This document shows, one piece after another, positions 35,494 through 39,043 of a DNA stretch of 39,043 nucleotides. The number at the start of each line of letters is the position of its first letter. Positions within the stretch are counted from its first letter, which is position 1. A program made the position numbers and the translations under genes. The stretch lies in sequence record AF547987; one strand, written 5' to 3'. This DNA is from Shigella phage Sf6. The notes below the pieces were generated by a model. That model made no database searches, had not been told where the DNA came from, and saw nothing but the letters and a program-made list of their open reading frames with translations.

Positions 35494-36002
35494 GAGAACT
35501 AAACCTCACCAAAGAACAGCATGAGTGGCTGAATGGCTGGCTTGAACTGTGGGGCGCATGGGTTTATTCAGGTCGTCTGGAAAAGCGCATGAGCAGCGTA
35601 ATAGCGAAGTTCATGGAGAGCGTAGAGCCGGGAAGAGTTATGACAAGGCCAATGTGCAATGATGATGATGGAATGTTGATTTCTCAGGTCGTCGATTCCG
35701 TCATGTACATTGACAAGAAAGCCTTTGGCATCCTCCTCAGCTACTACGCTCATGGTTCATCTAAGCGAGCAATTGCATCCTACTATCACGCGACTGCAAA
35801 GCCACGCAAGATGTGTGGACGTGGTGGCGAGGGATGGAGAAAACCTTCACTGGCAACCTGTAGAAACGAAATTGACGACATCCTGAAAGCGTCATTATTT
35901 GTTTTATACCAGCCAATGCAAAATGCTTTCAAAATGCGTAAACGTGTTGAGAAAGTTAAGCATGTTGCTGTTAAAAGCCTTGACATGCAATTAGCCATTT
36001 AG
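35484..36002 (+). CDS. Q: late-gene antiterminator Q (non-lambda type)
   Basis: 172-aa GTG-initiated ORF directly upstream of pR'; WGAW and CNDDDG motifs resemble the phage 82/DLP12-type Q family rather than lambda Q. Confidence 0.7.
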
Positions 36003-36009
36003 CCATAAT
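35980..36009 (+). promoter_or_regulatory. late promoter pR' candidate
   Basis: TTGACA at 35980-35985, 18-bp spacer, CATAAT at 36004-36009, immediately after the Q stop. Confidence 0.5.
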
Positions 36010-36020
36010 TAGAAGGTAAG

Positions 36021-36062
36021 CTGCCGTTAGTGACTCTTAAGTTGCAACGGTGGCTTTTTTAT
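36021..36062 (+). terminator. tR'-like terminator candidate downstream of pR'
   Basis: Imperfect hairpin around CCGTT...AACGG followed by GGCTTTTTTATTT; stem assignment uncertain. Confidence 0.4.
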
Positions 36063-36064
36063 TT

Positions 36065-36139
36065 GGGTCAGTCGTATAAAGGTCATTACGGAAGGCTGTT
36101 AACCTTCTTATCGTGGTTCGAGTCCACGCTGTCCCGCCA
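36065..36139 (+). tRNA. tRNA-Asn (anticodon GTT), with two stem mismatches
   Basis: Hand-folded cloverleaf: anticodon arm GAAGG-CTGTTAA-CCTTC, T-arm CGTGG-TTCGAGT-CCACG, 3' CCA; T:T mismatches in acceptor (4:69) and D stems. Confidence 0.55.
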
Positions 36140-36144
36140 AACAT

Positions 36145-36220
36145 GCTGGTTTAGCTCCAATGGTAGAGCAGTCGCCTTGTAAGCGAATGGGTAGCGGTTC
36201 AAGTCCGTTAACCAGCACCA
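36145..36220 (+). tRNA. tRNA-Thr (anticodon TGT)
   Basis: Hand-folded 76-nt cloverleaf: perfect 7-bp acceptor stem GCTGGTT/AACCAGC, D stem GCTC/GAGC, anticodon loop CTTGTAA, T-loop TTCAAGT, 3' ACCA. Confidence 0.7.
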
Positions 36221-36462
36221 TAACTGAGCCGTAGCCACTGGCTATCCTAGATTCATCAGTGATAGTTATGCTGCGGACTTCTACACATGACCTTCGTGAA
36301 AGCGGGTGGCATGAGGTTGCGCTAACAACCTCCTGCCGCTTTGCCCGTGCATATCGGTCACGAACAAATCTGATTACTAAACACAGTAGCCTGGATTTGT
36401 TCTATCAGTAATCGACCTTATTCCTAATTAAATAGAGCAAATCCCCTTATTGGGGGTAAGAC

Positions 36463-36786
36463 ATGAAGATGCCAGAAAAACATGACCTGTTAGCCGCCAT
36501 TCTCGCGGCAAAGGAACAAGGCATCGGGGCAATCCTTGCGTTTGCAATGGCGTACCTTCGCGGCAGATATAATGGCGGTGCGTTTACAAAAACAGTAATC
36601 GACGCAACGATGTGCGCCATTATCGCCTGGTTCATTCGTGACCTTCTCGACTTCGCCGGACTAAGTAGCAATCTCGCTTATATAACGAGCGTGTTCATCG
36701 GCTACATCGGTACTGACTCGATTGGTTCGCTTATCAAACGCTTCGCTGCTAAAAAAGCCGGAGTAGAAGATGGTGGAAATCAATAA
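36463..36786 (+). CDS. S: holin S (class I, dual-start)
   Basis: Begins [34 protein letters not shown] with the Met1-Lys2-Met3 dual start; sdi-like hairpin TCCCC-ttatt-GGGGG upstream. Confidence 0.95.
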
Positions 36787-37246
36787 TCAACGTAAGGCGT
36801 TCCTCGATATGCTGGCGTGGTCAGAGGGGACTGATAACGGACGTCAGAAAACCAGAAATCATGGTTATGACGTCATTGTTGGCGGAGAGCTATTCACTGA
36901 TTACTCCGATCACCCTCGCAAACTTGTCACGCTAAACCCAAAACTCGAATCAACAGCAGCCGGACGTTACCAGCTTCTTTCCCGTTGGTGGGATGCCTAT
37001 CGTAAGCAGCTTGGCCTGAAAGACTTCTCTCCGAAAAGCCAGGACGCCGTGGCACTGCAACAGATTAAAGAACGTGGCGCTTTACCGATGATTGATCGCG
37101 GTGATATTCGTCAGGCAATTGACCGTTGCAGCAATATCTGGGCTTCACTGCCGGGCGCTGGTTATGGTCAGTTCGAGCATAAGGCTGACAGCCTGATTAC
37201 AAAATTTAAAGAAGCAGGCGGAACGGTCAGAGAGATTGATGTATGA
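36770..37246 (+). CDS. R: endolysin R (lytic transglycosylase)
   Basis: 158-aa ORF overlapping the S stop; recognised as lambda R. Confidence 0.95.
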
Positions 37247-37680
37247 GCAGAGTCACCGCAATTATCTCCGCTCTGGTTATTTGCATCATCGTCTGCCTGT
37301 CATGGGCTGTTAATCATTACCGTGATAATGCAATCGCCTACAAAGAGCAGCGCGATAAAGCCACATCCATCATCGCTGATATGCAGAAGCGGCAACATGA
37401 TGTAGCAGAACTTGACGCCAGATACACAAAGGAGCTTGCTGATGCTAACGCGACTATCGAAAGTCTCCGTGCTGATGTTTCTGCTGGTCGTAAACGCCTG
37501 CAAGTCGCCGCCACCTGTGCAAAGTCAACGACCGGAGCCAGCAGCATGGGCGATGGAGAAAGCCCAAGACTTACAGCAGATGCTGAACTCAATTATTACC
37601 GTCTCCGAAGTGGAATCGACAGGATAACCGCGCAGGTTAACTACCTGCAGGAGTACATCAGGACGCAATGCCTTCGATGA
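37243..37680 (+). CDS. Rz: i-spanin Rz
   Basis: N-terminal TM segment ([18 protein letters not shown]) then coiled-coil; overlaps the R stop. Confidence 0.9.
37442..37627 (+). CDS. Rz1: o-spanin Rz1 (lipoprotein embedded in Rz, +1 frame)
   Basis: ATG at 37442 preceded by AAGGAG; lipoprotein signal [20 protein letters not shown] then a proline-rich segment; wholly inside Rz. Confidence 0.75.
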
Positions 37681-38116
37681 TAGCGATAATTTTACTCATC
37701 ATCCTTCACATCTGGCTCTGTAGACAGGGTGGTGATCACTTCTGGAGTAAATCCAGATTAAACATCTCATTGCTGATGCTTGATATTGAGCATCTGGCGC
37801 GCAGTAAGGGGCTGCGTTGAGATAAGAGCCAGTTCATTACAAAGCCTATCTACGGGTGGGCTTGATAATGAAACCGTGATTTACATCCCTCACAATCCAG
37901 GTATGTAAAGCTGGATTATGCGAGAACGGATTTAACTAAATCTGTGCACCACCAGTTACGGCAGTACCACGAAGCAACCCAAGCCAGTAAGTGGGGAAAT
38001 AACACTGGCAGCCACTGAAAGATGAACCTCCAGCCTTATGGCAAAAAAGATTCTTTGTGGTGGCGGACTGATGGAAAGACATCCTAATCAAGCAACCACT
38101 CCACAGGGTCATAATT

Positions 38117-38497
38117 ATGAACGGCCAGCAAATCGAAAAAGAAATCGTTGAGAAAGGCAAAACGGCACCGCGAATCACCCCGCAGCACATCGAAGACGTG
38201 ATTAAAAGCGAGCATTACTTTACTGCTTATGATGGACGAAATGGTGCCATTTCCAGCAACGAATATTGTGGCAGGGAAAAACCAGAGGAAGGCGATCGTG
38301 ATTTATCACCATTGAAGTTGCTCACTTTCTGCGTACTGGTGCTGAAGAATGGCTTCACCGTCACCGGAGAGAGTGCCTGTGCAAGCCCGGAAAACTTTGA
38401 TGCAGAAATTGGCCGGAAGATTGCCCGGCAAAATGCTGTAAACAAAATCTGGATGCTCGAAGGTTACTTGCTGAAGCAGAAGCTAAGCGAACAGTAG
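38117..38497 (+). CDS. hypothetical protein (possibly Gp49/Sf6 gene 66-type family)
   Basis: 126-aa ORF between lysis genes and terS; family assignment from memory only. Confidence 0.45.
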   Translation: MNGQQIEKEIVEKGKTAPRITPQHIEDVIKSEHYFTAYDGRNGAISSNEYCGREKPEEGDRDLSPLKLLTFCVLVLKNGFTVTGESACASPENFDAEIGRKIARQNAVNKIWMLEGYLLKQKLSEQ

Positions 38498-38600
38498 TTA
38501 TTACAAAAGCCATTCCCTACAGAGTGGCTTTGATAATGGCTTATACCCTACACGGGATAACTTAACTGATATCCCTTTTAACGGATAAACGGAGCCAACA

Positions 38601-38843
38601 ATGGCAGAGATTATTCCCATGACTGAAGAACAGAAATTCCAGTTAGAGATTTACAAACTGGTCATGAACCAGAACGCAGCTGCAGAGGAAGCATTTCAGT
38701 TCATTGGCACTGACGAACTGAAGCTTGAGCTATTCAAAATTCACTTCCAGTCAGGCGGCGCCAATTCGGATATCACGACCCGCACTATCGAAGCGGTGCG
38801 TAAATCGAAGGAAGCGTTAGACCTGTTCACCACCGGAGCATGA
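38601..38843 (+). CDS. hypothetical protein
   Basis: 80-aa ORF. Confidence 0.45.
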   Translation: MAEIIPMTEEQKFQLEIYKLVMNQNAAAEEAFQFIGTDELKLELFKIHFQSGGANSDITTRTIEAVRKSKEALDLFTTGA

Positions 38844-38844
38844 T

Positions 38845-39036
38845 GTGAGCCGCGTAATCAATTTGGGTAAGGAGAAGAAATTCCCAATTACTCAAGAGCT
38901 ATACGAGAGGCTGGAAAGCGTCATCCATGATTATGGTGAAATCAGTGTATGTGAGGCGATTGGCACACTCGAATTGCTGAAGCAGTCATTGATTGAAAGC
39001 ATGAAGAGCCAACGACCTGAAATAACAACTAAGTGA
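38845..39036 (+). CDS. hypothetical protein
   Basis: 63-aa GTG-initiated ORF ending 7 bp before the window end, which is followed circularly by terS. Confidence 0.4.
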   Translation: MSRVINLGKEKKFPITQELYERLESVIHDYGEISVCEAIGTLELLKQSLIESMKSQRPEITTK

Positions 39037-39043
39037 GATAAAT

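Follow-up and report, generated by a model that had tools for sequence, protein, structure and literature searches.

What is the short reading frame that follows the lysis gene Rz in Shigella phage Sf6? The stretch analyzed here (sequence record AF547987, 39,043 nt, a P22-like (Lederbergvirus) coliphage; "the window" below) carries directly after Rz an open reading frame (ORF) of 47 codons, here called the mini-ORF, which the original prediction described as a possible membrane peptide and, finding no clear ribosome-binding site (RBS), as possibly spurious. As a coding sequence (CDS) the mini-ORF is already annotated, with function unknown; the RNA domain that overlaps it appears undescribed, being absent from Rfam 15 and from the literature searched. 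The family shows conservation, synteny, frame maintenance, covariation and strand specificity. We favor, with moderate confidence and as an evenly balanced judgment, a reading in which a mini membrane peptide, translationally coupled to the preceding gene, is encoded within a structured 3' boundary element, both layers being functional. The features that this reading joins are:

37677–37820, + strand: the mini-ORF, 47 codons plus stop, a member of PHROG 11822 annotated in Gally, Huey and epsilon34.
37677–37721, + strand: codons 1–15, the hydrophobic N terminus, the sole part with a protein-level selection signature.
37712–37832, + strand: the RNA domain, 121 nt, closed by helix P1, in which CUGGCUCU (37712–37719) pairs with AGAGCCAG (37825–37832).
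37833–37872, + strand: a compound hairpin directly 3' of the domain (fold -22.4 kcal/mol, z -3.65).
37645–37676, + strand: the 5' edge of the conserved block, consisting of the last ~35 nt of Rz, a part that moves with the module.

The frame itself is as originally described: its ATG (37677–37679) overlaps the Rz stop (TGA, 37678–37680) as ATGA, the end of Rz reading ...CTT CGA TGA with the TG shared between the two codons, and its own TGA lies at 37818–37820. An alternative in-frame ATG at 37668, three codons upstream and preceded at 4 nt by AGGA, would give a product of 50 aa (MPSM...) and is the start used by several annotations. That ATG arises from the Rz codons CAA-TGC, which read CAG-TGC in Klebsiella-type relatives and offer no ATG there; 37677 is therefore the family-conserved start. 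The earlier worry that the frame is spurious for want of an RBS does not hold: in the relatives the start either overlaps the preceding stop codon, as ATGA or TAATG, or lies 5 nt downstream of a GAGG Shine-Dalgarno (SD) sequence carried by the last ~35 nt of Rz; where Rz ends ...TQCLR and stop, the codons CTG-AGG-TGA/TAA supply this GAGG. A frameshift extension of Rz was considered and ruled out, since the frame offset to the upstream gene varies (+1 in locus L169, +2 elsewhere; our locus numbers carry the prefix L).

Along its full length the peptide aligns with PHROG 11822 (E 2e-37, residues 1–50 on profile positions 1–50 of 50), a family of unknown function that includes Sf6 gene 65 and epsilon34 gene 67. 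Hypothetical-protein annotations exist as Gally_52, Huey_CDS0063 and epsilon34 gene 67 ("similar to Sf6 gene 65"), and the Prokaryotic Genome Annotation Pipeline (PGAP) likewise calls a hypothetical protein in E. coli chromosomes. By size alone the mini-ORF is within chance (3.5 kb of the sequence are touched by 52 ORFs of 25 aa or more); it exceeds chance because it is conserved. Whether the frame is conserved or disrupted in close relatives had been named beforehand as the deciding check, and it is intact at 156 of 161 related loci. In the first set of 70 loci scored, 66 stop at the canonical position, one stops prematurely and three have lost the stop. Frame 0 contains 0.06 stops per sequence against a column-independent expectation of 0.51, a depletion of about eightfold, whereas frames 1 and 2 have stops as expected (1.82 against 1.70 and 2.59 against 2.26). 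When the variable columns are filled with random bases, the frame is open with a probability of 0.16, against 0.94 observed. Because stops are depleted in frame 0 alone, we conclude that the frame is kept open. Length is equally constant: a nucleotide pattern that used two invariant islands as anchors and allowed the spacer between them to vary by +/-12 nt returned a spacer of exactly 76 nt in 64/64 viral and 39/39 metagenomic matches (103/103).

These observations bear on the possibility that the element has no function at all and is a chance ORF in a spacer, within a block spread recently by recombination among lambdoid prophages. E. coli-type copies are indeed 95–100% identical, the boundaries of the block, at 37645 and 37843, are mosaic, and the element is missing from most phages that share the window's Rz. 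The block between those boundaries keeps 96–98% identity beside window-type and divergent Rz alleles alike, the joint Rz-plus-block alignment with divergent alleles being only ~75% identical. Against an absence of function, members at 58–66% nucleotide identity keep length, frame, start and fold, the 103 pattern matches contain no indel, and the fold described below has undergone at least about 15 compensatory pair changes. We disfavor this explanation and consider it highly improbable.

Selection on the encoded protein is uneven along the frame. Among close E. coli-type copies the ratio of nonsynonymous to synonymous changes (pN/pS) is 0.34 for the mini-ORF, 0.24 for Rz and 0.05–0.09 for the holin, the endolysin and the gp49-like gene. 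The N-terminal codons outside the RNA domain give 0.07, 0.28 and 0.52 in three data sets, the partitioned counts being small (4 synonymous versus 1 nonsynonymous at the E. coli-type N terminus, for example), and unpaired positions inside the domain give 0.98 and 1.10 in two pooled sets. Codons 1–12 lie outside the closed 121-nt domain, and across 35 lineages codons 2–9 have an invariant T in second position and variable bases 1 and 3; such a period-3 invariant T is what selection for hydrophobic residues classically produces, and the mean Kyte-Doolittle hydropathy over residues 1–15 is 2.95. Codons 19 and 29 show the opposite of a coding pattern: their third base is invariant and the first two are free. 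The 32-residue tail is constant in length, stop-free and mostly positive, and its sequence evolves neutrally (pN/pS ~1). Judged from these alignments, purifying selection on the protein appears confined to the first 12–15 hydrophobic codons. The suggestion of a membrane peptide thus survives in part: the frame is conserved, coupled to a stop and hydrophobic at its start, but only the N-terminal third behaves as a selected protein, and "membrane peptide" covers at best a third of the story. The original prediction missed the RNA level, where most of the sequence conservation lies.

Two known protein roles were also examined. A lipoprotein signal of the o- or u-spanin kind was rejected, as there is no lipobox, the invariant I-W-L-C has Leu at -1 and a charged n-region is absent; Rz1 is already present at 37442–37627. 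For a holin or antiholin, no family match was found in PHROG, Pfam or NCBIfam, and the cassette already has a holin (36463–36786).

Codons 8–47 and the stop codon lie within a fold of the sense-strand RNA. For the window alone the minimum free energy is -71.5 kcal/mol (z -4.87), with P1 enclosing helices HB, HC, HD and HE. The parts inside or alternative to P1 are:

37699–37703 / 37731–37735, + strand: helix H1, pseudoknotted with P1 or alternative to it.
37740–37758, + strand: hairpin HB (37740–37746 / 37752–37758), around the "conserved Trp" codon.
37764–37823, + strand: a three-way unit in which HC encloses HD and HE.

In the three-way unit, HC pairs AUCUC(A) with (U)GAGAU (37764–37768 / 37819–37823), the stop codon being base-paired; HD is formed by 37772–37775/37795–37798 and 37778–37782/37787–37791, and HE by CGCAGU/GCUGCG (37800–37805/37811–37816). 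An inner helix, H2 (37707–37711 / 37720–37724), is weak in the window's type and well formed in other types. RNAalifold predicted 37 pairs from 17 lineages, and covariation was tested on 35 lineages below 96% identity. Paired cells amount to 94.6%, compared with 89.9 +/- 0.3 after shuffling, and double-change cells to 54, compared with 13.8 +/- 3.0, values that none of 500 shuffles reached (0/500 in both cases); sliding the partners by 1–3 columns lowers pairing to 33–45%, and to 33–44% in the 35-lineage alignment. The changes can be followed pair by pair. HB pair 69–85 occurs in six types (GC 16, AU 5, CG 5, UA 4, GU 2, UG 1); HC pair 94–149 is CG in 29, AU in 3, GC in 1 and GU in 1, with HC read as TATCA/TGATA in three lineages; the H1 pairs 28–62 (UA 24, CG 9) and 29–61 (CG 28, AU 5) divide the E. 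coli type from the rest; and in HE an A-U pair becomes G-C in three lineages including L172, where the change of the penultimate peptide residue from L to P is this very A-U to G-C change in the RNA. By our own tally ~16% of pair cells are G.U, which assigns the fold to the + strand, the sense of the late transcript. A DNA palindrome or protein-binding site as the main explanation was rejected on the same count, since these ~16% G.T cells would be A.C on the other strand.

Both strands of P1 are the most invariant nucleotides of the family, with six of six pairs formed in 29/35 lineages and five of six in two more; of the four low counts, three are alignment-register artefacts. A covariance model (R1) matches 37673–37835 at 149.9 bits, a score that is largely by construction because Gally (L001), the first row of its seed, matches the window at 100% identity from 37660 to 37830. 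In Rfam 15, only two tRNAs pass the gathering threshold within 35500–39043, and a permissive scan (E <= 10) of 37640–37900 and of the Klebsiella homologue returned chance-level scores of 8–17 bits against thresholds of 35–88. A "COG2827 RNA" match at 13 bits was dismissed as chance level; some relatives carry a COG2827-type GIY-YIG gene downstream. A loose contig pattern, TGGCTCTGTN{75,99}GGGCYGCG, was likewise abandoned, its 120 matches being chance hits in unrelated taxa (loci L177–L296, set aside). One E. coli lineage (L085–L093, 8 loci, matching window positions 37713–37834) carries 17 differences, 14 of them transitions: the 5' strand of P1 changes from TGGCTCT to AGGCCCT (W to R, L to P) with AGAGCC uncompensated, and several G-C pairs are weakened to G.U, the frame being still open. 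This lineage may be a decaying copy of the element.

Given this fold, the element might be RNA only, a cis-acting or processed structured RNA whose open frame is tolerated or incidental and encodes no functional peptide. The covariation, the strand-specific G.U pairs, the invariant third positions at codons 19 and 29 and the pN/pS of ~1 at unpaired positions all speak for it, as does the coincidence of motifs that look conserved in the protein with helices: WLC (TGGCTCTGT) is the 5' strand of the long-range helix P1, whose partner AGAGCC(AG) lies 5 nt past the stop; the "invariant Trp" sits in the hairpin CTGG...CCAG (HB), whose outer pairs covary; I-S (ATCTCA) pairs with the stop region (TGAGAT); and ARSKGLR is the hairpin CGCAGT-AAGGG-GCTGCG (HE). 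Lineages with a broken ORF (lost start, internal stop) keep 32–37 of 37 pairs, the structure being intact in L328 (start lost, and Trp TGG changed to a TAG stop inside a compensated HB stem), L399 and L106, and L176, which has lost the stop codon, retains HC by compensation as CTGTT/AACAG. An RNA alone does not account for the eightfold depletion of stops in frame 0 and no other, for the gap between 0.16 and 0.94 in open-frame probability, for the period-3 invariant T of codons 2–9, which lie outside the fold or at its edge, or for an N-terminal pN/pS of 0.07–0.5, nor for a start codon that keeps its position behind unrelated upstream sequences, every one of which provides an SD or a stop-start overlap. 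We regard the RNA-only explanation as possible, if on the doubtful side.

The converse proposal is an ordinary small membrane-protein gene (a lysis accessory, an antiholin or spanin modulator, or a type-I-toxin-like protein) whose mRNA fold is secondary and limits or times translation. In keeping with such a gene, the mini-ORF in most contexts lies next to the last lysis gene and is coupled to it, the N terminus is hydrophobic and the tail mostly positive, two helices are predicted, and hok-like mRNAs show a similar design. The tail is neutral, however, and its penultimate L to P change tracks RNA pairing; searches of Pfam (E <= 0.01, including Hok/Gef PF01848 and the holin families), NCBIfam (E <= 1), PADLOC and PDB sequences gave no match to the peptide; and the start region is not occluded by structure (fold z +0.55). 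A promoter consensus scan of 37200–38600, a weak test, found one weak minus-strand site at 37313 and none near the element on either strand, and thus no sign of an autonomous toxin/antisense pair. The GATAAT of the downstream hairpin was rejected as a promoter, with no usable -35 at 16–18 nt by inspection and none in the scan. We think it unlikely that the element is simply such a gene.

The element's relatives show it in other company. A profile search of 1.84 billion representative proteins recovered only about two dozen clusters, which include 45–46-aa proteins 43–51% identical to the window peptide with no internal alignment gaps. These divergent members end otherwise unrelated lysis cassettes of enterobacterial phages, on the same strand. 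The gene before the mini-ORF may be Rz (PF03245), a DUF2514 protein, an overlapped i-/o-spanin pair, a 60-aa protein, or an endolysin followed by a small two-transmembrane (two-TM) protein; the holins belong to three Pfam families, and the lysozymes differ too. Most loci place the mini-ORF -4 to +7 nt from the preceding gene; in a few, 36–995 nt intervene. In L301 and L311 a 3' remnant of Rz ("...TQCPR" and stop), with GAGG before the ATG, lies ~300 nt past a complete spanin pair, and we therefore take the portable unit to be the last ~35 nt of Rz, the ORF and the hairpin.

Two of these settings deserve description in their own right. The 60-aa protein (MEKMVLTASQIESLATFAKEEGQQKYTICHGH..., 1822–2004 in both L172 and L176) looks soluble, has no NCBIfam match and lies between a presumed spanin gene of ~180 aa and the mini-ORF, whose start overlaps its stop (ATGA); at these two loci no compound hairpin or terminator follows the element. 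The two-TM protein (58–66 aa, MNYLINRLKEPSTWRGIILVVAGVFGY...AGGVALAGVVGAVMPDSVKK) precedes the element after the endolysin in L307, L308, L314, L343 and L364, with no spanin gene seen between endolysin and element; it has no significant NCBIfam hit and may be a holin placed last in the cassette.

Closer copies are abundant. A 171-nt region of the element is present in 1984 of 5426 complete E. coli genomes, nearly always beside a "lysis protein", and the mini-ORF protein falls into 60 cluster representatives, nearly all from E. coli. An O157:H7 prophage carries the element beside a different holin and lysozyme.

In the reading we favor, the two superimposed features would form a portable module that ends the lysis cassette. 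Ribosomes leaving the preceding lysis gene would read the mini-ORF and make a peptide of ~47 aa, in which the hydrophobic 12–15-residue N terminus would be the selected protein part, probably a short inner-membrane anchor, and the 32-residue tail would matter solely in its length and absence of stops. The folded domain and hairpin would constitute a structured 3' boundary for the lysis segment of the Q-antiterminated late transcript, acting in processing, stability or insulation. A ribosome terminating at 37818–37820 would cover roughly 10 nt beyond the stop, enough to take in the 3' strand of P1 and too little to reach the hairpin, so translation and folding are necessarily coupled, and each ribosome on the mini-ORF would transiently unzip the fold to ~10 nt past the stop. 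The peptide might anchor in the membrane, modulate lysis or act as a toxin-like depolarizer, and the RNA might block exonucleases, provide a context for RNase III processing or serve as an insulator. That the frame is translated, that its product enters the membrane and that either layer acts in lysis is what we infer.

A bolder version makes the two layers one translation-coupled RNA device, in which the tail of free sequence is a spacer of exit-tunnel length and the dwell of the ribosome at the paired stop sets folding. The hydrophobic N terminus would just emerge as the ribosome reaches the base-paired stop; its dwell time would depend on whether the nascent anchor engages the membrane machinery, or on coupling to Rz translation, and would decide the folding of P1, HC and the following hairpin or terminator, which in turn would set processing, stability or read-through at the boundary between lysis and morphogenesis. 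We consider this version speculative and quite improbable.

Several points weigh against a functional peptide within a functional boundary RNA. The element is accessory: it occurs in 45 phage records, compared with 309 that match an Rz-plus-downstream query, and HK544 has Rz and lacks the element, which makes it dispensable. Eight of 35 lineages have an ORF defect (altered start, internal stop or lost stop), and in divergent lineages the pN/pS of the mini-ORF is 0.74–0.77 overall, the other five frames giving 0.85–1.21. The hydrophobic stretch, at 13–15 residues (13 in most members), is short for a transmembrane helix, and AlphaFold2 returned a modest two-helix model with residues 2–18 helical at a mediocre predicted local distance difference test score (pLDDT 68). 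As to the RNA, P1, which never varies, can offer no covariation, the structure was tested on the very sequences that yielded it, part of the covariation is a single split of the E. coli type from the rest, and many sequences were collected with the pattern that fixes the two anchors by design. The literature searched holds no mention of the mini-ORF and no expression data.

The hairpin that follows the domain has a 7-bp lower stem (UUCAUUA/UAAUGAA), a 2x2 internal loop, a 9-bp upper stem and no U tract. It is followed in the window by GAUAAUGAAACC and falls short of an intrinsic terminator, and a + strand terminator scan found none at 37833–37872. At the same place Gally, epsilon34, L301, L312 and L333 have an intrinsic terminator (GCCTCGCA..GCGGGGCTTTTT), which is annotated in epsilon34. 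Relatives from Klebsiella and metagenomes share the hairpin design, with an invariant ATTACA...GATAATG around a covarying upper stem, and the RBS of the next gene often begins ~10 nt past the hairpin or terminator. The combination of 7-bp and 9-bp stems with a 2x2 loop fits an RNase III site, at which cleavage is hypothetical. A second compound hairpin (38499–38541, + strand; UUAUUAC-AA-AAGCCAUUCC...GGAGUGGCUUU-GA-UAAUGG; -24.4 kcal/mol, z -5.48) brackets the gp49-like gene together with the first and is a candidate RNase III site or module-boundary recombination sequence.

The junction at 37835–37843 is an empty moron site in the window; many relatives hold a gene of ~500–700 bp there, and the 9-nt overlap matches both flanks of the insert. 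Inserts encode Rha in Gally, Sf101 and JEP4, KilA-N in HK544, HK620 and Emek, GIY-YIG in epsilon34, g341c and HK106, and a protein labeled "anti-CRISPR" in Huey. The Huey record gives the name "anti-CRISPR protein" to its gp49-like homologue, apparently an automated label. In an O157:H7 prophage (L166, 2662–3335), the element and an intrinsic terminator are followed by ~675 bp without an annotated gene before DUF1441 and terminase. The anti-small-RNA (sRNA) molecules AgvB and AsxR of enterohemorrhagic E. coli (EHEC) prophages lie at a PR'-proximal moron site, not at the site of the element (PMC4104026).

The remaining genes of the late region are:

Q, ending near 36002.
36065–36139, + strand: tRNA-Asn(GTT), between the Q-like gene and the holin gene.
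36145–36220, + strand: tRNA-Thr(TGT), between the Q-like gene and the holin gene.
36463–36786: the holin.
36770–37246: the endolysin.
37243–37680, + strand: Rz (i-spanin; Pfam PF03245, E 7e-36), whose stop overlaps the mini-ORF start.
37442–37627: Rz1, embedded in Rz; both are annotated at the homologous epsilon34 positions.
38117–38497, + strand: a PF13876 protein (N4 gp49 / Sf6 gene 66).
38601–38843, + strand: a DUF2560 protein (Sf6 gene 67-like).
38845–39036, + strand: a PHROG 3546 protein.

From Rz to 38120, Gally is ~96% identical to the window over the aligned parts. The two tRNA genes sit downstream of the PR'/qut position of annotated relatives, and the corresponding slot of Klebsiella phage ST16-OXA48phi5.2 contains four tRNAs.

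The lysis cassettes of lambdoid and P22-like phages are textbook sets of four genes (holin, endolysin, Rz and Rz1), and the element is an optional fifth at their 3' end, extremely common in E. coli prophages, O157:H7 included. In the epsilon34 genome paper the lysis module comprises four genes, and gene 67 receives no discussion (PMC2629481). Screens for intergenic structured RNAs would probably have passed over the element because pipelines call a CDS there. Should the RNA control processing or stability of the lysis segment, or the peptide modulate the last step of lysis, a new regulatory layer would be added to a well-studied pathway, and the element would be a clean case of coding and RNA-structure constraints sharing one frame of 47 codons. 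Should the translation-coupled device prove true, an undescribed RNA family would lie under a hypothetical CDS in ~37% of complete E. coli genomes. If neither the RNA nor the peptide has such a role, what is left is a well-characterized hypothetical gene, for which the 47-codon start at 37677 is preferable to the 50-aa start.

The nearest known counterparts are the PHROG 11822 proteins, which belong to the same family by full-length profile and occupy the same place directly after Rz; their annotations record a CDS only, often with the 50-aa start, and leave the overlapping RNA fold unrecorded. In design, the element is also akin to the hok-type type I toxin mRNAs, in which small hydrophobic ORFs lie in highly folded mRNAs with long-range closing helices. 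It shares with hok/gef an ORF of ~50 codons, a hydrophobic N terminus, a long-range-closed mRNA and coupling to an upstream frame. The likeness is in design only, as the mini-ORF has no PF01848 match and no detected promoter of its own or for an antisense RNA, lies inside a phage late operon and has a start region that is not sequestered.

Processing hairpins for RNase III occur in polycistronic phage mRNAs, as in the R sites of T7 and sib of lambda. Like these and like terminators at moron boundaries, the hairpin at 37833–37872 is intergenic, with an internal loop separating its lower from its upper stem, and in relatives it stands just 5' of the RBS of the next gene, a canonical terminator taking its place in others; the known sites have no counterpart to the 121-nt multi-helix domain upstream of it. 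Nascent-chain monitoring ORFs such as SecM, MifM and VemP, and leader-peptide attenuators, offer a further comparison. The mini-ORF resembles these in being short, with an N-terminal hydrophobic segment and a tail of exit-tunnel length (32 residues), and its stop is paired in a conserved RNA that a terminating ribosome would open, a circumstantial likeness. It differs in that it has no demonstrated arrest motif, its C-terminal residues vary with RNA pairing, and the genes after it (terminase, Rha, KilA-N, GIY-YIG, gp49-like) are not conserved and include no obvious regulated target. Finally, lambda bor and other post-Rz morons fill the same slot between the lysis cassette and the packaging and head genes, a recognized hot spot for accessory DNA. 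The bor gene encodes a lipoprotein, lies on the opposite strand and carries expression signals of its own, whereas the element, which has no detectable promoter, is co-oriented with the lysis genes and coupled to the frame before it.

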